NCBI GenBank assembly: GCA_020348445.1
Contig: CP070751.1
Span: forward strand, 2,640,707 to 2,650,756
Source of the DNA: Thermoplasmata archaeon
GTDB taxonomy: Archaea; Thermoplasmatota; Thermoplasmata; GCA-020350865
Direction of reading: 5' to 3'
Length of the DNA stretch: 10,050 nt
Under the pieces are notes generated by a model. It was not told the origin of the DNA, ran no database searches, and saw only the letters and a list, made by a program, of their open reading frames with translations. The stretch's first letter is position 1; each line of letters starts with the position of its first letter. Of this stretch, positions 1 through 10,050 are shown one piece after another. Both the position numbers and the translations under genes were made by a program.

Positions 1-2
1 AT

Positions 3-1241
3 CCATTCAATGTCTCGGCTTTAAATCATTCTGTTAAGGGATATGCTGACCCAGAACCAACCATGAATCTATCAAAAGCAGTCTATGTCGAGGTTCCTTT
101 CAACATTATTCCCAATTCACCGCCTTCAGTTTGGGTTTACACTCCTTCTGGGATTCAAAGCGGCAACATAACCATCGATTTTGTGCTTGAGGATTTTGAC
201 CAAGGCGATGACGGAAATATGAGCATCTCTGTGGAGTACAGCACAGATGGCACTTCTTGGGAAGGGGCTATAGCTGGACAGGGAAGTGATCTAGATCATC
301 TATTCAACAATACACTTTATCATTTTGTGTGGGACTCTAAAGCAGATATTGGATCGATATATGACACCACTGTTTACATTAGGATCACCCCTGCTGACAG
401 GGCTGGAAACGGGACAAAGAATCAAACTGGGAGCTTTACTGTGGACAACAAACCCCCTGAGTTGATATCAGGGCCTACTGTGGATGCCACCAACTCAACT
501 GCCACCATCCAATGGACTGTGGATGAGTCTTCAGATGCAAGTGTTTGGTTCGGGCTTGATGGCTCGTTAACAAATTATGCAACTGGTAATTCAGGCTCGA
601 CCTTCCAATCAGTGACACTTACTGATCTAGAACAAGGTCGAAGATATACATATACAGTCAATTCCATTGACCAATATGGCAACCAATATACATCCCCCAT
701 GTATATGTTCGAGACAAAGGTACATATTCAACTTTATAAAGGCTGGAACATGATTTCAATTCCTCCCTATATTACTGATCCAAATCTCGAAATAGTATTG
801 AACTCGATTTCGGGACAATACGATGCTGTGCAATGGTATGATCCTGCGGATGGCAAAGATCCTTGGAAGCACAATCGCCCCGGAAAACCCTTTGGCAATG
901 ATTTAAATATCATTGAGACCAGAATGGGCTTATGGATTCACATGACAGAAGATGCGATTCTGATTCCAGATCAGATCGTCCCAGACCCTGATTACTTTGA
1001 ATTTATCTCTTTGATTGCGGGCTGGAATTTGGTGGGTTATCCTTCTGTGACCACCCGCGATGTGACAACTATTTTAGATCCTGTTCCATACGATAAGGTG
1101 ATGACCTACGATGCAGCCACGGGAGAGTGGCTCAGTTATGATAAAGGAACGGGCTTAGGTGATCTCACAGAAATGGAGCTTGGACAGGGGTATTATATCC
1201 ATGTCACTGTTGATTTCCCGTGGCAGATTACTTATGTGTGA
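3..1241 (+). CDS. 5'-truncated secreted surface protein (gene 1): end of carboxypeptidase-regulatory-like domain, Ig/cadherin-like domain, FN3-like domain and duplicated GWN C-terminal module; paralog of gene 2
   Basis: Frame +3 is open from the window edge (PFNVSALNHSVKGYADPEPT precedes the ATG at 63), and the identical peptide lies inside gene 2 at offset +2651. The ORF-track start at 63 is therefore an internal Met. Stop TGA is at 1239-1241. About 86% aa identity to gene 2 over 412 aa (57 differences by manual count). Confidence 0.93.
   Translation, partial: PFNVSALNHSVKGYADPEPTMNLSKAVYVEVPFNIIPNSPPSVWVYTPSGIQSGNITIDFVLEDFDQGDDGNMSISVEYSTDGTSWEGAIAGQGSDLDHLFNNTLYHFVWDSKADIGSIYDTTVYIRITPADRAGNGTKNQTGSFTVDNKPPELISGPTVDATNSTATIQWTVDESSDASVWFGLDGSLTNYATGNSGSTFQSVTLTDLEQGRRYTYTVNSIDQYGNQYTSPMYMFETKVHIQLYKGWNMISIPPYITDPNLEIVLNSISGQYDAVQWYDPADGKDPWKHNRPGKPFGNDLNIIETRMGLWIHMTEDAILIPDQIVPDPDYFEFISLIAGWNLVGYPSVTTRDVTTILDPVPYDKVMTYDAATGEWLSYDKGTGLGDLTEMELGQGYYIHVTVDFPWQITYV
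723..1238 (+). other. C-terminal bipartite GWN module of gene 1 (two repeats of ~93 and ~79 aa)
   Basis: HIQLYKGWNMISIP...YDAVQWYD...PW...NDL..IE..MGLWIH aligns with FISLIAGWNLVGYP...YDKVMTYD...EW...GDL..ME..QGYYIH. GWN codons are at 741 and 1020. Confidence 0.85.
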
Positions 1242-1277
1242 TTATTGAATTTCAATTTGGGGTTATTCAACTTTCGT

Positions 1278-1294
1278 TCTAAAACATATATAAA
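1278..1294 (+). promoter_or_regulatory. Putative archaeal BRE/TATA promoter of gene 2
   Basis: TCTAAAACA followed by TATATAAA (1287-1294). It is homologous in sequence and position to the element upstream of gene 3. Confidence 0.55.
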
Positions 1295-1357
1295 GGAGAA
1301 AACGGATAGGGAATCAGAAGATTCATGGCCAGAAAGGGGAGTTATGGCGATGGCGAT

Positions 1358-1364
1358 GAGGTGA
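1358..1364 (+). promoter_or_regulatory. Archaeal-type Shine-Dalgarno GAGGTGA for gene 2
   Basis: GAGGTGA lies 5 nt upstream of the in-frame ATG at 1370. Confidence 0.7.
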
Positions 1365-1369
1365 GCAAG

Positions 1370-3892
1370 ATGAAGAACAAAAGGCAGTTAGAATCGATTT
1401 TATTGGTTTTTATTTTTGTATCAAGTAGCATTGTAATCGTGGTTCCTTTGACAGCTCCAAAGGCCAGGGGACAGATTGTTCACGATTCAGGCTCCGCCCA
1501 AGCAGAGGATGGGATTTGGCCATTTGATATAGATGGTGACGCTGATGGCATCGTACATTGGAATCCAAATGAGGATCACTGGATAGAGGAAAATTACACT
1601 GTTGAAAGCGGCTATACCCTCGATATACCTGCTATGAATTTCATGGGCAATCCTTCTACTGCCAATGAAATAACTTTTAGGGGCCGGGGGCATAAGATCG
1701 AGGTGTGGGGCACGCTGCTTACCCACACAAATAGCCTCATGCCCCGATTATGGACTGCTTTTTTGGATGGTGATGGCACAGGTTGGGAAGGTATAATATT
1801 CCGTCCCGGTGGTGCGGGAAACATACAAGATTGCCTTTTTTCCGGGGCAAAAAGAGCTGTTAGATATTTCCCGGCACCCCTGCCTGGCCCCGGTGGCTCA
1901 ATAATGCTGGAACCTGGTATATATCGTTCCCATTTTATGGACATAGAGGAGTACGGCGTGGAGGTGTCCGGCGCAGAAGGTTACACGAATGTGGAGCTCT
2001 GTTATTTTGATCAGAGCACGAATCCCAGGGGAAGGGGTTTGCAAGTCATAAGAGGAAATTTGGATATTAAAAACTCGATGTTCATTTCTCACGGCGATGA
2101 CGAGCCTCAACTTTATATATGGGATTCCATTGTCCATGCCGAGGAAGTGACTTTCACTGGCGCAGGTCGATCTGGAAGCCTGGTACGAATCAGAGAGAAA
2201 AGCAATGGGACAGTGCTTACACAATGCAAGTTCCAAACTGGAGCACCAGGCGATCATTATATATGGACCCAAGGATGCACCCCTTTAATAGATAACTGCA
2301 CCTTTGAGACGAAAGATGGTCAGCTTTCAGTAATCGCAGAGGAAAAATATATAGGTCCTTCCCACCCGATACTTCGGAATGCCTCAAGCATGCTCCCGGG
2401 AAATGACGATGCTCCCTTTGATAATTCCACGATCAACGCCACAGGCGCATCCAGCGTAACTCTTCAATGGTACATGCATGTGAATGTGAAAAACCCACTT
2501 GGTCACCCCATAGAGAACGCACCAGTTTGGGTAAAGAATCGCACCGGTGACCCTGCCGAGCCCCCCTCAAAAATAACAGATTCTAAAGGATGGGCATTAT
2601 GGTTTTTGATCACCGAGTTGATCCAATACAATGATAGCAGGGCTATCTTCAATCCATTCAATGTCTCGGCTTTAAATCATTCTGTTAAGGGATATGCTGA
2701 CCCAGAACCGACTATGAATCTATCAAAAGCAGTCTATGTCATGGTTCCCTTCAACGTGATTCCCAATTCACCGCCTTCTGTCTGGGTTTACACACCTTCT
2801 GGGATTCAAAGCGGCAATATCACCCTCGATTTTGTGCTTGAAGATTTTGATAAAGGTGATGACGGAAATATGAGTATCTCTGTGGAATACAGCACAGATG
2901 GTACTTCTTGGGATGAGGCAATAGCCGGACCGGGAAGCGATCTAGAACATCTATTCAACGATACACTTTATCATTTTGTTTGGGACTCTAAAGCAGATCT
3001 TGGATCGATACTTAACACCACAGTTTATATCAGGATCACACCTGCCGACAGGGCCGGAAACGGGACAAAGAATCAGACAGGGAACTTCACTGTGGACAAC
3101 AAACCCCCTGAATTGATATCAGGACCTACTGTGGATGTCACCAACGTAACTGCTACCATCCAATGGACTGTGAACGAATCAGCTGATGCAAGTGTTTGGT
3201 ACGGGCTTGATGGCTCGTTAACAAATTATGCAACTGGTAATTCAGGCTCGACCCTACAATCAGTGGCACTAACAGATCTGCAACCAGGTCGAAGATATAC
3301 GTATACAGTCAATTCCATGGACCAATATGGCAACGAATACACTTCTTCCATTTACATATTCGAGACAAAGGTGCACATTCAGCTTTATAAAGGCTGGAAC
3401 ATGATCTCGGTTCCTCCTTTTATTACTGACCCAAGTCTCGAAAGTGTATTGATATCGATTTCGGGGCAATACGATGCCGTGCAATGGTATGATCCTGCAG
3501 ATGGCAAAGATCCTTGGAAGCACAATCGTCCCGGAAAGCCCTTTGGCAATGATCTGGATATCATCGAGACCAGAATGGGCTTATGGATTCACATGACAGA
3601 AGATGCAACCTTGATTCCAGATCAAATAGTTCCAGACCCTGATTACTCTGAATTTATCTCGTTGGTAAATGGCTGGAATTTGGTAGGTTATCCTTCTGTT
3701 ACCTCCCTAGATGTCGCAGATGCGCTGGATACTGTTCCGTACGATATGGTTCTGACCTATGATGCACCTACGGGGCAGTGGCTCAGATATGATCCCGGTA
3801 CAGGATCTGGTGATCTTTCGCAGATGGAGCTTGGACATGGATATTATATCCACGCTACATTTGATTTCCCCTGGGAAGTAACCTATGTTTGA
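1370..3892 (+). CDS. Secreted surface glycoprotein (gene 2, 840 aa from ATG 1370; ORF-track start 1325 is possible): signal peptide, right-handed parallel beta-helix, carboxypeptidase-regulatory-like domain, Ig/cadherin-like domain, FN3-like domain, duplicated GWN C-terminal module
   Basis: Signal peptide MKNKRQLESILLVFIFVSSSIVIVVPLTAPKARG|Q (1370-1471). Beta-helix-type motifs W.GIIF, DCLF, QCKF and DNCTF (~1550-2470). VNVKNPLGHPIENAPVWV...TDSKGWA (~2472-2750). NSPPSV...SVEYSTDG.SW...FTVDN (~2765-3100). PPELISGPTV..TN.TATIQWT..LTDLQPGRRYTYTVNS.D.YGN (~3101-3373). GWN module 3374-3889. 20 N-x-S/T sequons. Domain names come from motif recognition, not an HMM search. Confidence 0.93.
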   Translation: MKNKRQLESILLVFIFVSSSIVIVVPLTAPKARGQIVHDSGSAQAEDGIWPFDIDGDADGIVHWNPNEDHWIEENYTVESGYTLDIPAMNFMGNPSTANEITFRGRGHKIEVWGTLLTHTNSLMPRLWTAFLDGDGTGWEGIIFRPGGAGNIQDCLFSGAKRAVRYFPAPLPGPGGSIMLEPGIYRSHFMDIEEYGVEVSGAEGYTNVELCYFDQSTNPRGRGLQVIRGNLDIKNSMFISHGDDEPQLYIWDSIVHAEEVTFTGAGRSGSLVRIREKSNGTVLTQCKFQTGAPGDHYIWTQGCTPLIDNCTFETKDGQLSVIAEEKYIGPSHPILRNASSMLPGNDDAPFDNSTINATGASSVTLQWYMHVNVKNPLGHPIENAPVWVKNRTGDPAEPPSKITDSKGWALWFLITELIQYNDSRAIFNPFNVSALNHSVKGYADPEPTMNLSKAVYVMVPFNVIPNSPPSVWVYTPSGIQSGNITLDFVLEDFDKGDDGNMSISVEYSTDGTSWDEAIAGPGSDLEHLFNDTLYHFVWDSKADLGSILNTTVYIRITPADRAGNGTKNQTGNFTVDNKPPELISGPTVDVTNVTATIQWTVNESADASVWYGLDGSLTNYATGNSGSTLQSVALTDLQPGRRYTYTVNSMDQYGNEYTSSIYIFETKVHIQLYKGWNMISVPPFITDPSLESVLISISGQYDAVQWYDPADGKDPWKHNRPGKPFGNDLDIIETRMGLWIHMTEDATLIPDQIVPDPDYSEFISLVNGWNLVGYPSVTSLDVADALDTVPYDMVLTYDAPTGQWLRYDPGTGSGDLSQMELGHGYYIHATFDFPWEVTYV
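3374..3889 (+). other. C-terminal bipartite GWN module of gene 2
   Basis: HIQLYKGWNMISVP... followed by FISLVNGWNLVGYP...GYYIHATFDFPWEVTYV-stop. No hydrophobic tail. Confidence 0.85.
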
Positions 3893-3928
3893 TAGTTGAG
3901 TTTCAATAGGCCATTGTTCAAGTATTGC

Positions 3929-3945
3929 TCTAAAACCTTTATATA
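3929..3945 (+). promoter_or_regulatory. Putative archaeal BRE/TATA promoter of gene 3
   Basis: TCTAAAACC immediately followed by TTTATATA (3938-3945), a close match to the archaeal TATA consensus, 55 nt before the ATG at 4001. Confidence 0.65.
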
Positions 3946-3986
3946 GTACATTACTGATTATGAGGGTGAAATTTATTAAAGGAGAT

Positions 3987-3991
3987 GGAGG
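3987..3991 (+). promoter_or_regulatory. Shine-Dalgarno GGAGG for gene 3
   Basis: GGAGG lies 9 nt upstream of ATG 4001 (12 nt from the second ATG at 4004). Confidence 0.55.
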
Positions 3992-4000
3992 CATAAAAAT

Positions 4001-6520
4001 ATGATGACTAGATTGAAGACTTTAAAGGATAAAAGGCAGTTGGAATCGATTTTGATCGTGTGTGTGCTTTTGGCAACGAGCATAGTGGTGATTTTTCCAC
4101 TGACCGCGCCCAAGGTTAGTGGTCAAATTATTCATGATATGGGCCAAGCCATGCTAGAAGACGGCCAACCCACTGATGCCGATGGTCAAATTAACCAAAT
4201 CGTTGTATGGGACAATTCTGACACACATATAGTTCAAACACAAAATTATCTTGTTAATCCCGGGTATACACTGGTTATACACGGATTAACTCCTCCAAAT
4301 GGTATATCTTTTGATTTGGGAGCAACCAGGATAGATGTGGCAGTTGACGCCAAATTGATCACCCATGATAATGGTGCTGACTTCACAAGAACTGTATTTT
4401 CTTCCTCAGGAATTGGAGGCTGGGACGGCATATATTTCCTGCCAGGCAGTGAAGGTAGAATATTGGATTGCGAGTTCGATGGTCCCAACAATGGTGTGAT
4501 TTTCCAAGGAGCATCCCTTATGGAACCTGGTATATCCAAATCCAGTTTTATAAATATGGCCGCATTTGGTATACAAATGGATAGAGCAGTGAATTATACG
4601 AACATGGATTTCGTCGTATTCGATGACAGCGCCGCACCAAGCGCGGTTTGTCTGGATGTTCGCAATGGCACTTTGAATTTGACCGACGGTGTAAGCTTCA
4701 TAGGCCACGGCATTGGTATGCCCAGTATGTATGTTTCCAATGCGAACGTAACCCTCGATAGCGTTAACTTCAATGGTTTTGATATTCCAGGTCAGGGTCT
4801 TTTGGTGGAGGAAAAGTCCAATGGGACAGTGCTTGATTTCTGCGAGTTTCAAGGTGGTTGGCCTGGTGAATATTATGCAAAAACCAACGGGGCATCCATT
4901 TTTATGGATAACTGCTCATTTTACCAGGGAGGAGCCTCCGCCGGCGCTCTAACATTGCAGGCAAATGATTATTCCCCAGGTTTTCCATCCCATGATCTTC
5001 TAAGGAATCCCATGGGTATAGGCAGCGACTGGGACAATGCAACACTAGGTGTCACTGGAGCCTCTAGCATCACTGTGGAGTGGTGGCTGGATGTGGAGGT
5101 GGTGGATCCTGATGGTCACCATATAATAAGCTCAACTGTCAATGTCTCAGACCCCTCTTCCCCTGACAAACGGCTTTCTGATGCATTGGGCTTTGCAAGA
5201 TGGTTTTTGGTCACTGAGTTTATTCAATACAGCGGTTTGCGGTCATACTTCGATCCATTCAATATCTCTGCCACCAACGTTTCGTCTATCGGGTATCTGG
5301 AACCACCGGCCAGTGTAGAAAAGTCAAAGATCGTAACAGTTGTCGTTCCATTCAGTATTATACCAAACACGTTACCTAAGGTCACATGGTTGCCCACACC
5401 CCCAGGTGTACAATCTGGCAATATCACCATCGAATATATACTCGAAGATCTAGACCCATGGGACGACGGAACCCTAAATGTAACAGTATCCTACAGCTTT
5501 GATTCCTTGATCTGGCATTATGCAACTGCTATGCCCAGTAGCCCCCCGACTGTTAATCTGAACAATAACACGCTCTATTACTTCTATTGGGACTCCTCAT
5601 GGGATTTGTTTGAAATGCAAGTTCCAGTAATATATATTCAGGTCCGTCCTTATGATGCCGCGGGCCGAGCCGGAGGCCAATCTGGGCTTACATTGGAAAC
5701 CGGGGCTTTCGAGGTGGACAACCAGGCACCAAGCCTCGTTGGTCAAGATCCTACTGCCACGCCTACAAACACCACCGCACTTGTCACATGGTTCGTGAGT
5801 GAAGATGCCGATGCAGCGGTATGGTACGGGCTCGATGGTGTTCCTACAATGGAGCAGACAGGCGCTGTACAAACCCCAGATCAAAGTGTGGATCTAACAG
5901 GCTTGATTCCAGGCAGGAATTACACATTTTATGCCAATTCCACAGACGCAATGGGTAACAAAGCTTCCTTTGGACCGTTTTGGTTCCACACAGAGGTTCA
6001 TATCCAATTATATAAAGGCTGGAACATGATATCGATTCCGCCTGACATTCCCGACCCAGATATTGCAGACGTTCTGCTCCCGATAGCAGGCGACTATGAT
6101 GCCGTTCAGAGGTACGATCCATCGGACGCCACAGATCCTTGGAAGCACTACAATCCAAATAAACCCTCACAATACAACGATTTGAACCAGTTGGCCTTGA
6201 ATATGGGCCTTTGGATACACATGACAACCGAGAGAGTTTTCATAGTAAACCATGAAGTTCCAACTCCTTCAGGTGCATATCCCATTGGAATGTTTGTGGG
6301 CTGGAACCTCGTTCCATATCCATCATCCATTGCAAGGGATGTTCCCACAGCATTATCAGGCGGCTTCTCATGGGATATGGTCATGTATTTCGACGGAGCT
6401 TCTGGTCAATGGTTAAGATATGACGGGGTAACATATTTCGACATCACCCAAATGGAGATCGGTCATGCCTATTATGTCCATGTCACATCAGGTGGATTTT
6501 GGAACGTAAATTATACGTGA
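4001..6520 (+). CDS. Secreted surface glycoprotein (gene 3, 839 aa): more diverged paralog of gene 2 with the same architecture (signal peptide, beta-helix, Ig/FN3-like stalk, GWN module)
   Basis: Signal peptide ...KDKRQLESILIVCVLLATSIVVIFPLTAPKVSG|Q (4001-4123) is homologous to gene 2. Shared motifs: W.GI.F.PG..G.I.DC.F, MEPGI, EKSNGTVL..C.FQ.G.PG, DNC.F, QSGNITI, EDxDxxDDG, F.VDN.PP, VWYGLDG and VHIQLYKGWNMIS. About 17 N-x-S/T sequons. Confidence 0.93.
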   Translation: MMTRLKTLKDKRQLESILIVCVLLATSIVVIFPLTAPKVSGQIIHDMGQAMLEDGQPTDADGQINQIVVWDNSDTHIVQTQNYLVNPGYTLVIHGLTPPNGISFDLGATRIDVAVDAKLITHDNGADFTRTVFSSSGIGGWDGIYFLPGSEGRILDCEFDGPNNGVIFQGASLMEPGISKSSFINMAAFGIQMDRAVNYTNMDFVVFDDSAAPSAVCLDVRNGTLNLTDGVSFIGHGIGMPSMYVSNANVTLDSVNFNGFDIPGQGLLVEEKSNGTVLDFCEFQGGWPGEYYAKTNGASIFMDNCSFYQGGASAGALTLQANDYSPGFPSHDLLRNPMGIGSDWDNATLGVTGASSITVEWWLDVEVVDPDGHHIISSTVNVSDPSSPDKRLSDALGFARWFLVTEFIQYSGLRSYFDPFNISATNVSSIGYLEPPASVEKSKIVTVVVPFSIIPNTLPKVTWLPTPPGVQSGNITIEYILEDLDPWDDGTLNVTVSYSFDSLIWHYATAMPSSPPTVNLNNNTLYYFYWDSSWDLFEMQVPVIYIQVRPYDAAGRAGGQSGLTLETGAFEVDNQAPSLVGQDPTATPTNTTALVTWFVSEDADAAVWYGLDGVPTMEQTGAVQTPDQSVDLTGLIPGRNYTFYANSTDAMGNKASFGPFWFHTEVHIQLYKGWNMISIPPDIPDPDIADVLLPIAGDYDAVQRYDPSDATDPWKHYNPNKPSQYNDLNQLALNMGLWIHMTTERVFIVNHEVPTPSGAYPIGMFVGWNLVPYPSSIARDVPTALSGGFSWDMVMYFDGASGQWLRYDGVTYFDITQMEIGHAYYVHVTSGGFWNVNYT
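5999..6517 (+). other. C-terminal bipartite GWN module of gene 3
   Basis: HIQLYKGWNMISIPP...YDAVQRYD..D..DPWKHY.P.KP...NDL.....MGLWIHMT, then IGMFVGWNLVPYPS...WDMVMYFD..SGQWLRYD...DITQMEIGHAYYVH...-stop. Confidence 0.85.
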
Positions 6521-6776: not shown

Positions 6777-9700
6777 ATGTCTAAGAGAGGAGAGTTTAAG
6801 AAAAGAAGATTTTTTTCTTTTACCTCGTGTGTGTTGCTTACCCTAAGCACCCTGCTTATCGGGATATCGTTTGAAGTGCCCAATGTGAGTGCAAATGAGA
6901 ACCATGATGTGGGAGAGATTAATTTTGATATGCTCACAGGTTATGGCAGACTTTTAATGCCTCTTAAATGGCCTAATCCTGGTTCCTTCCAAACCGTAAG
7001 TCACCAAGGAACTGGTTTTATTGGATTGGTTGTGGATCAGGACGGCTACAATCATACCCCTGGGTCTGTGGATATCGCGGATTGCTTTAAAGAGGCAGAT
7101 ACCAAGTACTGGACCCAAGATGATTTTGGAGCATCGTCAATTACTATGGCCATCGATTCCGGTGGTGTCCAAAAAAGCATCGCAACTATGAAGAATCTTT
7201 ATACCACACAGGATGCCAACGATATACAAATCGATCAAACAGTCTGGACAGTTGAAAACAAGGACTGGGCAATATTTCAATGGAATGTTCAGAATATTAA
7301 GAGCCCTGCAGCTGATATTACAGGCTTCAAGCTCGCTTTGGAGGTGGATATCTCGCAAACTGATTGGGGGGCGTCGACAACAGATGCTGGTCTAGGCGGG
7401 GACTCAGGAGACGACGTCGACGGTTTCGATGCCGGTGAGAACGTGTACTGGGCTCAGGATGACGCAGGTTCTGGAGTCGCCATGGGATTTGGCTCAGTCA
7501 TTGCCTCGGACCCCATCACACATTACTTTTCAAAGGATTATAAACCCGCAACCTATATTGAATACAAGGAATATTGGGAAGACGAGCAATGGTTGTACGA
7601 CAGAATCAGCGCAGCAAACAGTGTTGAGGGAGACATCACAGCAGGAAATCGAACATCCCAGGTTGGATGGACTGGAGAAACCATAGCTGCAGGATCCTCA
7701 AGGACCTTCACCCTCGTGATCGCCATAAATAATACGAAAAACAGCATGATCAATGCAATAAAGGATGCTCAATACTACTATAGAAACGTGATAACAGGCT
7801 TTGTGTTTACAGAATTTTCGGATTCAGGGGGAACCCACCAAATCGAGATATTTAACAACGGCCGTGAATCAACTCCCGCATCAAATTTTGAATTTTCATT
7901 GGACGGTGGAGTATCGTTTTTGACGGTGTCCCCGGACAAGGACCCGATACCCACATACGAGTATGCGGTTTTCGATGTCACTGGTGGCGGATCCATCGGC
8001 GATCAGGGTGATACAATTAGTGTGTACGAAAATGGAATGTTAATTGACCAGGTTGCTTTTGGACAGGAAGGGCTTGCACCCGATCCTTTACCCGGAGAAT
8101 CGGTGGCAAGGTATTATAATCCTAATACGGCCTCATATTCTAACCAATGGGTTCACCAGGCCTCAGGGGGGCATACATTTGGTGCTCAAAACGATGTGGG
8201 TGTTGTCATGCCCAGAACCAGGATTGTTATCAACAGGGTCATGTTCGATCCCAGCGTGCCAGACGAGGGATACATCGAGCTGATGTACACCGGACCCATA
8301 GGACTGTCTACGAACATTACAGGATACAGGATCCTTTGCAATGACGAGTATGTCATACCCGCGGGACCTGACACCACTTTGGACTACTACAATAACAAAT
8401 TTTATGTGTTCACATATTCTGATATGAATCCATTTTTCACAAGCATGGACCCATCTGCAGACAATGTATATCTTTGCCTGGGTAACAGGAGCATTTTGGA
8501 CAGGGTTGGATGGAGCGGTTCCCACACCACAGGATTTTTCATGTCCAGGATCCCTGATGGAAATGGAACTAATTTGGGTTACAACGATGCCACTTCCATT
8601 GCTGCTAGCTGGTTTTTCGATCAGCAGCCAGTCGTAATGCTCACAGAGTTGTATGTGGACAGCACAAGCGCCCGAATCGAGGTCTTCAACCCAAGAGGCG
8701 GCGAAAAGTTGCTTGATTCCAGATGGAGCCTGGAAAGCAGTATAAATGGCCCCGGGGCACTTCCAGGATTATGGAATTTGGGTAAGATACCCCGTGATGG
8801 AGGATATGATGACTTCACCATGAACCCGGGTCCCGTACTTGGAGGAGAAGGTGATACGATCACTTTATATTGGGATCCAAGCTCCGGCCCAATTTTAATG
8901 GATCAAGTTGGCTTCGGAACACACGGACCTGCACCAGATCCCCTCTCGGGGGAATCCACTGCCCGCTACTACAATGACACCCAAATGATCTACTACGATA
9001 ATTGGACCAGGGAAGATACTCCCTCTTTCGGAGCTCAAAATGATGTCATAGCTATAAACCAAAGCTCTTGGATCATCTTAAATGAGGTCATGTTCTATCC
9101 GGGTACTATCCCAACTGGAAGGTTCTTTGTTCTAATCAATATAATGCCAGGGTGGAATGTGAATGTCGCAGGTTACACGATAGTATGCGATGCACCATAT
9201 CTATTTCCATCGTTTCCCATAACCCCTGGAGGATTTGATGGATGGATTTACGCACCTGACGATCCAGATGGCCGGCCGAATATGGTGATCATCAAGTACA
9301 CGGATGATCCCACAAACTCCACTAATTTCTTCGATAGTATTGATGAAACAGGAGACAATATTTACCTTTACGATTTCAACGGGGAGCTTGCCGACATGGT
9401 TGGATGGAATAATCCGCATACCCAGGGAATGACCGTGCGCAGGGTTCCAACTGGAAACGGCACTTATCAGGGCCATAACGACATCACTTCTGAGGCCGCA
9501 AGCTGGGTTTTCGATACTCCATTGGCAGTTCAAGTAACAGAAATATCTGACGACCAATCAACATCTGAAATCGAGATATATAACCCCAGGTATTCGCTGA
9601 TCAACTTCAGTTCTGGAAACTATGATTTTGAGAATTCCACAGGCGCTGCGCTCACAGGCACGTGGACAAAACCAGAGGCGGGAGCAGGTGAGTACGCTGT

Positions 9701-10050
9701 TTTCGATGTAACTTCCCCAGGTTTAGACCCAGATAGTGATATCATACGCTTCTATCAGAGCGGAGTCTTAATCGAGGAAATAGGCTATGGAACAAAAGGA
9801 CCAGTTCCTGATCCTTTGGCGGGCGAGAGCGTTCAAAGATATTGGAATGGCGTGTATTATACCAATTTATGGGGAAGGAACTGGACAACAGGAATCAATT
9901 TCGGGCTTCAAAATGACATACCCCCCGCAAATCTCTCTTCATTCTTTATGCTGAACGAGGTGCTCTTTAATCCCAGCAATCAAGATGATACTTATGTGGA
10001 GGTTTTCAATGCCTATGGAATCGCATGGGATATCTCTGGATATAAGATCG
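6777..10050 (+). CDS. 3'-truncated large secreted protein (gene 4, at least 1091 aa) with an N-terminal ~300-aa domain and tandem lamin-tail-domain (LTD)-like repeats; missing from the ORF track
   Basis: Manual translation of frame +3 from ATG 6777 shows no stop to the window end (MSKRGEFKKRRFFSFTSCVLLTLSTLLIGISFEVPNVSA|NENHDVGEINF ... FMLNEVLFNPSNQDDTYVEVFNAYGIAWDISGYKI). The signal peptide is 6777-6893. LTD-like motifs include (I/L)NEV.F.P..YVE.FN...DISGY.I, GD.I.LY...IDQV.(F/Y)G, GES..R and FG.QND. Many N-x-S/T sequons. Confidence 0.92.
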   Translation, partial: MSKRGEFKKRRFFSFTSCVLLTLSTLLIGISFEVPNVSANENHDVGEINFDMLTGYGRLLMPLKWPNPGSFQTVSHQGTGFIGLVVDQDGYNHTPGSVDIADCFKEADTKYWTQDDFGASSITMAIDSGGVQKSIATMKNLYTTQDANDIQIDQTVWTVENKDWAIFQWNVQNIKSPAADITGFKLALEVDISQTDWGASTTDAGLGGDSGDDVDGFDAGENVYWAQDDAGSGVAMGFGSVIASDPITHYFSKDYKPATYIEYKEYWEDEQWLYDRISAANSVEGDITAGNRTSQVGWTGETIAAGSSRTFTLVIAINNTKNSMINAIKDAQYYYRNVITGFVFTEFSDSGGTHQIEIFNNGRESTPASNFEFSLDGGVSFLTVSPDKDPIPTYEYAVFDVTGGGSIGDQGDTISVYENGMLIDQVAFGQEGLAPDPLPGESVARYYNPNTASYSNQWVHQASGGHTFGAQNDVGVVMPRTRIVINRVMFDPSVPDEGYIELMYTGPIGLSTNITGYRILCNDEYVIPAGPDTTLDYYNNKFYVFTYSDMNPFFTSMDPSADNVYLCLGNRSILDRVGWSGSHTTGFFMSRIPDGNGTNLGYNDATSIAASWFFDQQPVVMLTELYVDSTSARIEVFNPRGGEKLLDSRWSLESSINGPGALPGLWNLGKIPRDGGYDDFTMNPGPVLGGEGDTITLYWDPSSGPILMDQVGFGTHGPAPDPLSGESTARYYNDTQMIYYDNWTREDTPSFGAQNDVIAINQSSWIILNEVMFYPGTIPTGRFFVLINIMPGWNVNVAGYTIVCDAPYLFPSFPITPGGFDGWIYAPDDPDGRPNMVIIKYTDDPTNSTNFFDSIDETGDNIYLYDFNGELADMVGWNNPHTQGMTVRRVPTGNGTYQGHNDITSEAASWVFDTPLAVQVTEISDDQSTSEIEIYNPRYSLINFSSGNYDFENSTGAALTGTWTKPEAGAGEYAVFDVTSPGLDPDSDIIRFYQSGVLIEEIGYGTKGPVPDPLAGESVQRYWNGVYYTNLWGRNWTTGINFGLQNDIPPANLSSFFMLNEVLFNPSNQDDTYVEVFNAYGIAWDISGYKI
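7800..10050 (+). repeat. Protein-level (A-B)n repeat array of LTD-like domains in gene 4
   Basis: A1 ~7800-8198, B1 ~8223-8618, A2 ~8631-9047, B2 ~9072-9512, A3 ~9528-9920, B3 from ~9945 (truncated). The PDPLxGESxxRY motif starts at 8079, 8934 and 9807 (periods of 285 and 291 aa). Confidence 0.88.

Follow-up and report, generated by a model that had tools for sequence, protein, structure and literature searches.

We analyzed a window of 10,050 nucleotides, the whole stretch from position 2,640,707 to 2,650,756 of contig CP070751.1 (assembly GCA_020348445.1, a Thermoplasmata archaeon), and found that three of its genes close with the same two-repeat domain of 165–172 residues, which we call twin-GWN. 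It is close to certain that twin-GWN serves Sec-exported proteins of Thermoplasmata, Anaerolineae, and some methanogen metagenome-assembled genomes (MAGs) as a common C-terminal tail that can be exchanged between them. We are nearly as sure as one can be that the module is an autonomously folding, β-rich extracellular domain made of two homologous repeats of about 80 residues. That it retains or docks proteins at the cell envelope by non-covalent binding is the functional reading that we favor, and we consider the case for it evenly balanced.

The three copies of the module lie on the + strand at window positions 723..1238, 3374..3889, and 5999..6517. Both the translations and a hidden Markov model (HMM) placed them at the C-termini of genes 1, 2, and 3, where an earlier note made from the DNA letters had put them. 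Copy 1 consists of repeat a (about 723–983) and repeat b (about 984–1238) and is followed by the stop codon at 1239–1241; the HMM match ends three residues before this stop. The corresponding repeats occupy about 3374–3634 and 3635–3889 in copy 2, which was the query for the structure model, and about 5999–6262 and 6263–6517 in copy 3, which is 54% identical to copy 2. The modules start with His at 723, 3374, and 5999, and an invariant Val stands one codon upstream, at 720, 3371, and 5996. The halves of each module are homologous, as the note had also read them (blastp identity 26%–34%, E values from 8e-8 to 9e-10).

The note had further claimed that the first 13 residues do not vary, and we found that VHIQLYKGWNMIS is indeed the same in all three genes. 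The codons of this segment vary at synonymous sites, which indicates conservation at the protein level through purifying selection and rules out recent gene conversion as the origin of the identity. In an alignment of modules from the source genome, the conserved aromatic or His positions were W8, Y33, W48, H50, W71, W101, Y106, W136, H160, and W167; in the cross-domain alignment W8, W48, W71, W101, and Y106 were still invariant.

The search of the source genome with an iterated HMM revealed twin-GWN in 102 open reading frames (ORFs), and a protein search gave 105 places. Among the roughly 98 ORFs that could be assessed (the 102 minus those cut by assembly gaps), 94 have a module that ends 0–5 residues before the stop, most often exactly 2, and the commonest chain ending of module proteins is WEVPL. 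A signal-like N-terminal hydrophobic segment with small-residue sites was present in 91 of the 102 ORFs, and only about two had a later membrane anchor; here and below, signal peptides and transmembrane (TM) segments were called by a hydropathy heuristic, not by a signal-peptide predictor. We also counted the module in a large candidate secretome, taken as the ORFs of at least 400 residues with only an N-terminal hydrophobic segment. By this crude hydropathy count, 89 of 292 such ORFs (about 30%) carry it.

The regions ahead of the module form 23 unrelated clusters. The largest groups of this cargo are NosD-type β-helix proteins (54), BNR-like proteins (12), and PQQ propellers (3). Cargo types found once comprise peptidases of the M14, M28, M23, and S8 types, a purple acid phosphatase, a GHL15 protein with CBM4_9, and CBM96, as well as FG-GAP, Kelch, SBBP, and lamin-tail (LTD) domains. 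In the junction contexts of the source genome neither a linker nor a conserved cleavage motif precedes the module, and different upstream domains abut it directly. The HMM search, which the earlier note had set as its own test, returned what the note had foreseen: many signal-like proteins with unrelated N-termini and the module strictly at the C-terminus, free of TM anchors. The family is also far wider than the paralogs of the window, a restriction that the note had considered, as seen in the 102 ORFs, the 23 cargo clusters, and the other genomes described below. The note had likewise considered internal copies and copies beside TM anchors, and these do not occur as a general rule. Only four of the approximately 98 ORFs have the module in an internal position, one of them a fusion of two β-helix units, and only two copies stand alongside a membrane anchor.

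Three of the exceptional ORFs (source-genome coordinates) are instructive. The ORF 1054992–1059101 (1369 residues) is composed of a β-helix, an MG4-like domain, an internal twin-GWN, a second β-helix unit that has no signal peptide of its own, and a PEF-CTERM tail. It has the appearance of two neighboring genes for surface proteins joined by fusion or read-through, more than that of a purpose-built scaffold. The ORF 3763363–3766470 has the module together with a C-terminal TM segment, and in ORF 2317907–2322085 a Spherulin4 domain lies C-terminal to the module.

The head and the tail of these proteins can have separate histories. The first 488 residues of gene 3 are 65% identical to ORF 5015539–5017749 (over 490 residues), which is closer than their relation to gene 2 (44%). 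The middle of this ORF does not align with gene 3, and its module, which belongs to another twin-GWN subtype, is only 31% identical. Closely related heads joined to divergent tails indicate that the tail has been exchanged between cargoes.

Other tails occur on related cargo. Of the 216 cargo paralogs that we found to lack twin-GWN, 37 have a TM helix and then a K/R tail at the C-terminus. A second recurrent and uncurated C-terminal module of about 250 residues closes 37 ORFs, always 24 residues from the stop, with the motif W.WHST.MP.GA.D ... GYQISTS..TKF.FIG and no Pfam match. Its carriers include NosD β-helix and LTD-like proteins (e.g., ORFs 4493112–4496381 and 4496505–4498760), and it never occurs in the same ORF as twin-GWN. 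Comparison of the two modules with hhalign gave weak, pattern-level similarity (E 0.0013 in one comparison, probability 19%). This choice of tail fits a localization tag and is the strongest indirect argument for one.

Many giant cargo paralogs were seen to have a CxxC...CxxCG zinc-ribbon-like tail or a long acidic or proline-rich one at the C-terminus (e.g., the ORFs that start at 770719, 4914444, and 4435597); such tails probably lie in the cytoplasm, with a TM segment ahead of them. The genome also has an archaeosortase/exosortase-like gene: matches lie at 2831818–2832426 (− strand) and 4781037–4781315 (+ strand), one of them above the Pfam cut-off. There are three to five PEF-CTERM tails, with matches at 1059012, 873714, and 4372139. 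No PGF-CTERM (TIGR04126) match was found in the genome, and the TIGR03024 matches fall in proteins other than the window genes.

The distribution of the module beyond the source genome was examined with a profile of 30 modules searched against 1.84 billion cluster-representative proteins. The profile matched 9,692 clusters at E ≤ 1e-3, 4,414 at E ≤ 1e-10, and 733 at E ≤ 1e-30, and in 147 of the 150 best clusters the match ended two residues before the C-terminus. The named host records are mainly MAGs of Thermoplasmata or “Methanomassiliicoccales.” Other hosts belong to Chloroflexota (Anaerolineae, Caldilineaceae, Brevefilum, and a 2.1-Mb Chloroflexia contig), and one is a Methanosarcinales MAG. 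Copy numbers were 43 in a 3.2-Mb Thermoplasmata MAG, 10 in the Methanosarcinales MAG, and 2–3 in each of three fully counted Chloroflexota genomes. Within a sample of the class Anaerolineae, 53 of 201 genomes matched at E ≤ 1e-10, with a maximum of at least 12 copies. In a sample of the archaeon's own phylum the module was patchily distributed: 45 of 401 genomes matched at E ≤ 1e-5, and most small genomes of the same class were without the module.

The terminal placement was kept in the fetched loci of both Thermoplasmata and Chloroflexota, that is, in both domains of life. The Chloroflexota cargo is likewise of surface type and includes BNR/sortilin propellers, MBG, He_PIG/cadherin-like repeats, and β-helices. 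The earlier note had called the module archaeal; its frequency in Anaerolineae and other Chloroflexota means that it is not specific to archaea. Relatives with a single repeat occur in giant proteins of other Thermoplasmatota. Apparent stand-alone modules, database proteins of 214–258 residues, were rejected as 5′-truncated fragments from short contigs.

An AlphaFold2 model of copy 2, built on a 30-sequence alignment, had a pLDDT of 88.7 and a pTM of 0.85. Each modeled repeat has two strands, a short helix, and four strands, and the 172 residues together are predicted to form 13 strands (of at least three residues) and two short helices. The note could name no family for the module, and our searches gave none, nor any confident match to a characterized domain. 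In Pfam-A and NCBIfam no family matched the module in the three window proteins at E ≤ 1, and none covered a set of 21 diverse archaeal and Chloroflexota modules; the best stray hit was DUF1737 (E 0.0069, 3 of the 21). The profile had no match below E 0.39 among Protein Data Bank (PDB) sequences.

Fold searches were also negative. Foldseek returned nothing from the PDB at E ≤ 0.001, with TM-scores of about 0.1–0.2. The best VIA-align hits among 48,161 chains reached Z 3.9 (RCK_C, HPr, and cupin-like fragments), which is well below the noise level of the tool, and no fold, β-sandwich or jelly-roll folds included, reached Z ≥ 5; this structure search covered the homologous second repeat and barely covered the first repeat alone. 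The ESM Atlas gave only unnamed clusters at a score of 0.95 and, among named entries, nothing above 0.83. No paper on the domain turned up in full-text literature searches, including searches with its motif strings. Twin-GWN is a new, large, and uncurated family with no known fold detectable by the tools used, and judged by its context it behaves like the portable tails already known from surface proteins.

Listeria GW modules, SLH domains, and dockerins may serve as the closest working analogies. Listeria GW modules hold a protein non-covalently on an envelope polymer, lipoteichoic acid. Like twin-GWN, the GW modules of InlB and Ami (PF13457) are Gly-Trp repeats of about 80 residues that stand in tandem at the C-terminus of signal-peptide proteins lacking a TM segment or sortase signal. 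However, no PF13457 match was found in 25 scanned sequences, the twin-GWN repeat has the order strand-strand-helix-four strands, and no SH3-like match rose above noise in VIA-align or Foldseek; the hosts also differ, being archaea and Chloroflexota. For SLH, no PF00395 match was found in the window proteins or in the 21 diverse modules.

Type I dockerins (PF00404) are internally duplicated, almost always C-terminal, and present on dozens of unrelated exported enzymes per genome, as twin-GWN is on its cargo. They differ in having about 70 residues with two Ca-binding loop-helix segments (F-hand, about 22 residues), whereas twin-GWN is almost all β over 165–172 residues; the window proteins and the 21 modules had no PF00404 match. 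The C-terminal domain (CTD) of the type IX secretion system (T9SS; Por_Secre_tail, TIGR04183/PF18962) is also β-rich, and in each genome tens to hundreds of diverse secreted and surface proteins have it as their very last part. In contrast, twin-GWN is a two-repeat unit that is sometimes internal, with no Pfam or NCBIfam match. The T9SS is an outer-membrane translocon of Bacteroidota, an envelope that the Thermoplasmata and Chloroflexota hosts are assumed to lack. PGF-CTERM and PEF-CTERM are, similarly, shared C-terminal tags on archaeal surface proteins, and PEF-CTERM is present in the same genome, where twin-GWN outnumbers it by about 20:1. Those tags are short tripartite signals with a TM helix that are processed to a lipid anchor, whereas twin-GWN has no hydrophobic helix.

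In the mechanism that we favor, the cargo would leave the cell through Sec and its signal peptide would be removed. Twin-GWN, the last part to be translocated, would then fold outside the cell and bind a component of the envelope non-covalently, which may be a surface glycan or lipoglycan, the S-layer, or a membrane-anchored receptor. It would in this way do for its cargo what a TM helix at the C-terminus, the PEF-CTERM tail, or the second tail module does for paralogous cargo in the same genome. Three features together favor such retention or docking: the tail is swapped with membrane anchors, it is carried by about 100 unrelated exported proteins, and its position at the chain end is strict. 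About 100 tagged proteins per genome is within what we take to be the usual range for dockerin and T9SS CTD tags.

Several points weigh against this reading. No ligand and no partner, such as a cohesin-like protein or a scaffoldin, was identified, and no search for a partner was made. The hosts of the module come from both Archaea and Bacteria, whose envelopes differ greatly; one conserved receptor for all of them is therefore improbable, and a generic ligand is the better candidate. In Chloroflexota the copies are usually few for a sorting tag, at two or three in the three counted genomes and up to at least 12 in the class sample. Some copies are internal or stand beside anchors, as in the three exceptional ORFs (1054992–1059101, 3763363–3766470, and 2317907–2322085). 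The N-terminal stretches of 18–22 residues could also be uncleaved signal anchors, in which case the module would lie at the distal tip of the protein and not at its point of anchorage; cleavage of the signal peptide is more economical, because paralogs with C-terminal TM anchors share the same type of N-terminus.

A more elaborate form of non-covalent docking, which we put forward tentatively and with some doubt, makes twin-GWN the cargo tag of an undescribed display system. A dedicated receptor, a protein or a specific glycan of the envelope, would then capture all proteins with the tag at their end, so that about 100 enzymes and adhesins form a coat reminiscent of the cellulosome or of T9SS display, with the second module and its 37 ORFs as a parallel class.

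The main rival account, which we judge unlikely, is that of a lectin-like or carbohydrate-binding module (CBM)-like domain that binds an environmental polymer, a particle, or the glycan of another cell, so that it targets the substrate and not the envelope of its own cell. The β-rich structure and the many aromatic residues among the conserved positions are in line with it, and hydrolases and adhesin-like repeats make up much of the cargo. The presence of the module in Archaea and Bacteria of similar habitats is what a function independent of the envelope would give, and internal positions between catalytic domains are tolerated. However, CBMs are not normally confined to the extreme C-terminus, whereas twin-GWN is terminal in about 96% of cases in its own genome and in the 147 of 150 clusters worldwide. 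One binding domain on so large a share of the candidate secretome would be unusual, the more so as its carriers include non-catalytic propellers and LTD proteins. The module and TM anchors are also mutually exclusive on paralogous cargo, and none of the CBM families in Pfam matches the module sequence; the CBM4_9 and CBM96 matches sit in the cargo.

Self-assembly is a further explanation, and an improbable one: the tagged proteins would form a protein coat by joining each other or by joining anchored proteins that have an internal copy. The module is an internal pseudo-dimer whose repeats are predicted to pack rigidly, judging from the pTM. A few proteins anchored by PEF-CTERM or a TM segment carry an internal copy and are possible nucleation points, and the single-repeat relatives in giant proteins are compatible with the idea. 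Nothing positive was found for self-association, though, and anchored module proteins number only two, one of which, ORF 1054992–1059101, resembles the fusion of two genes more than a scaffold. Very improbable, finally, is an export, folding, or pro-domain that is cleaved after aiding translocation or folding, like the bacterial pre-peptidase C-terminal domain (PPC) or the T9SS CTD. Such a role agrees with the extreme C-terminal position on diverse exported cargo, the last part to cross the membrane, and with a copy number per genome that resembles that of T9SS CTDs. It agrees poorly with the junctions, where neither a conserved cleavage motif nor a linker precedes the module, and with the tolerated internal copies. 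Archaea and Chloroflexota are generally held to be monoderm, which leaves no second membrane to cross, and no HMM match to PPC or Por_Secre_tail was obtained. Docking on the cell's own envelope stays our preferred reading.

The window is a single contig of a scaffolded genome, with runs of N directly before base 1 and after base 10050. Four + strand ORFs fill it, at 3–1241, 1325–3892, 4001–6520, and 6777–10049. Because of the flanking N runs, gene 1 is without its 5′ part and gene 4 without its 3′ part. Gene 1 (3..1241), of which the ORF list and translation give only the 3′ part, is open at its 5′ end and is a paralog of gene 2. A longer ORF that suggested a fusion of gene 1 with a RecD-like helicase was rejected as an artifact of reading through the N run. 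Gene 2 (1325..3892) encodes a predicted exported protein of 855 residues that has β-helix, Ig-like, and FN3-like parts, as judged from weak Pfam matches, and ends in the module. Gene 3 (4001..6520) encodes its paralog of 839 residues, with 44% identity over the whole length.

Genes 1–3 are paralogs of one architecture, with a signal-like N-terminus, a weak right-handed β-helix, Ig-like and FN3-like domains, and the module. In gene 2 the matches to Beta_helix, Big_1, fn3, and Pur_ac_phosph_N are weak and all below the Pfam cut-offs; in gene 3 Beta_helix reaches 26.6 bits, where the cut-off is 25.9. The FN3-like domain of gene 2 (3110..3367, + strand; fn3 E 0.0019 and Pur_ac_phosph_N E 2.2e-4, below the cut-off) lies directly 5′ of the module and abuts it without a linker or cleavage motif.

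The N-termini of genes 2 and 3 have a basic start, a hydrophobic stretch of 18–20 residues, and a small-residue site, and no further TM-like segment was detected by the hydropathy scan beyond the N-terminus of either protein. The note's claim of signal peptides and no C-terminal TM helix in these two genes was confirmed at this level. In gene 2 the predicted signal peptide runs from an internal Met16 (1370..1471, + strand) and has a KNKRQ n-region, an h-region of 18–20 residues, and a site between ARG and Q; in gene 3 it is predicted at 4001..4123 (+ strand), with a site between VSG and Q.

The 3′ halves of genes 1 and 2 share 86% DNA identity over 1295 nt (window 1–1295 against 2652–3946). 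The similarity continues 54 nt past the stop codon, a sign that the two arose by a recent tandem duplication and that the downstream spacer was copied as well. Genes 2 and 3 align from end to end. The head of gene 3, described in the note as strongly diverged, does have the lower identity to gene 2 (about 41%, vs. 54% for the module), but the end-to-end alignment shows that it is not unrelated.

Gene 4 (6777..10049, + strand) is open at its 3′ end and encodes more than 1091 residues; the N-terminus of the protein is signal-like, and three stretches are of the lamin-tail type (LTD, PF00932). A paralog of it at 2454267–2457746 of the source genome was seen to have the same N-terminus and to end in a twin-GWN module. 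The 5.16-Mb source genome forms one scaffold, has a GC content of 41.5%, and includes about 35 kb of N. Many of the gaps that we noticed in the assembly fall within or beside twin-GWN genes. Assembly breaks induced by the repeats are therefore likely, which makes the copy number an approximation and leaves the ends of some genes uncertain.

To our knowledge, the established means of retaining proteins at the archaeal surface are limited to TM anchors, lipid anchors, and archaeosortase signals. Twin-GWN bears on how the uncultured archaea of sediments and digesters keep their many exoenzymes and adhesins at the surface. The definition of twin-GWN as a family would improve the annotation of thousands of hypothetical surface proteins, and the module of about 170 residues is a clonable handle on what these cells display, and on what they display it. 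If a display system does exist, it would form a coat on some Thermoplasmata and, to a lesser extent, on Anaerolineae. If twin-GWN binds an envelope component, it would represent a new principle of non-covalent anchoring common to archaea and monoderm bacteria.

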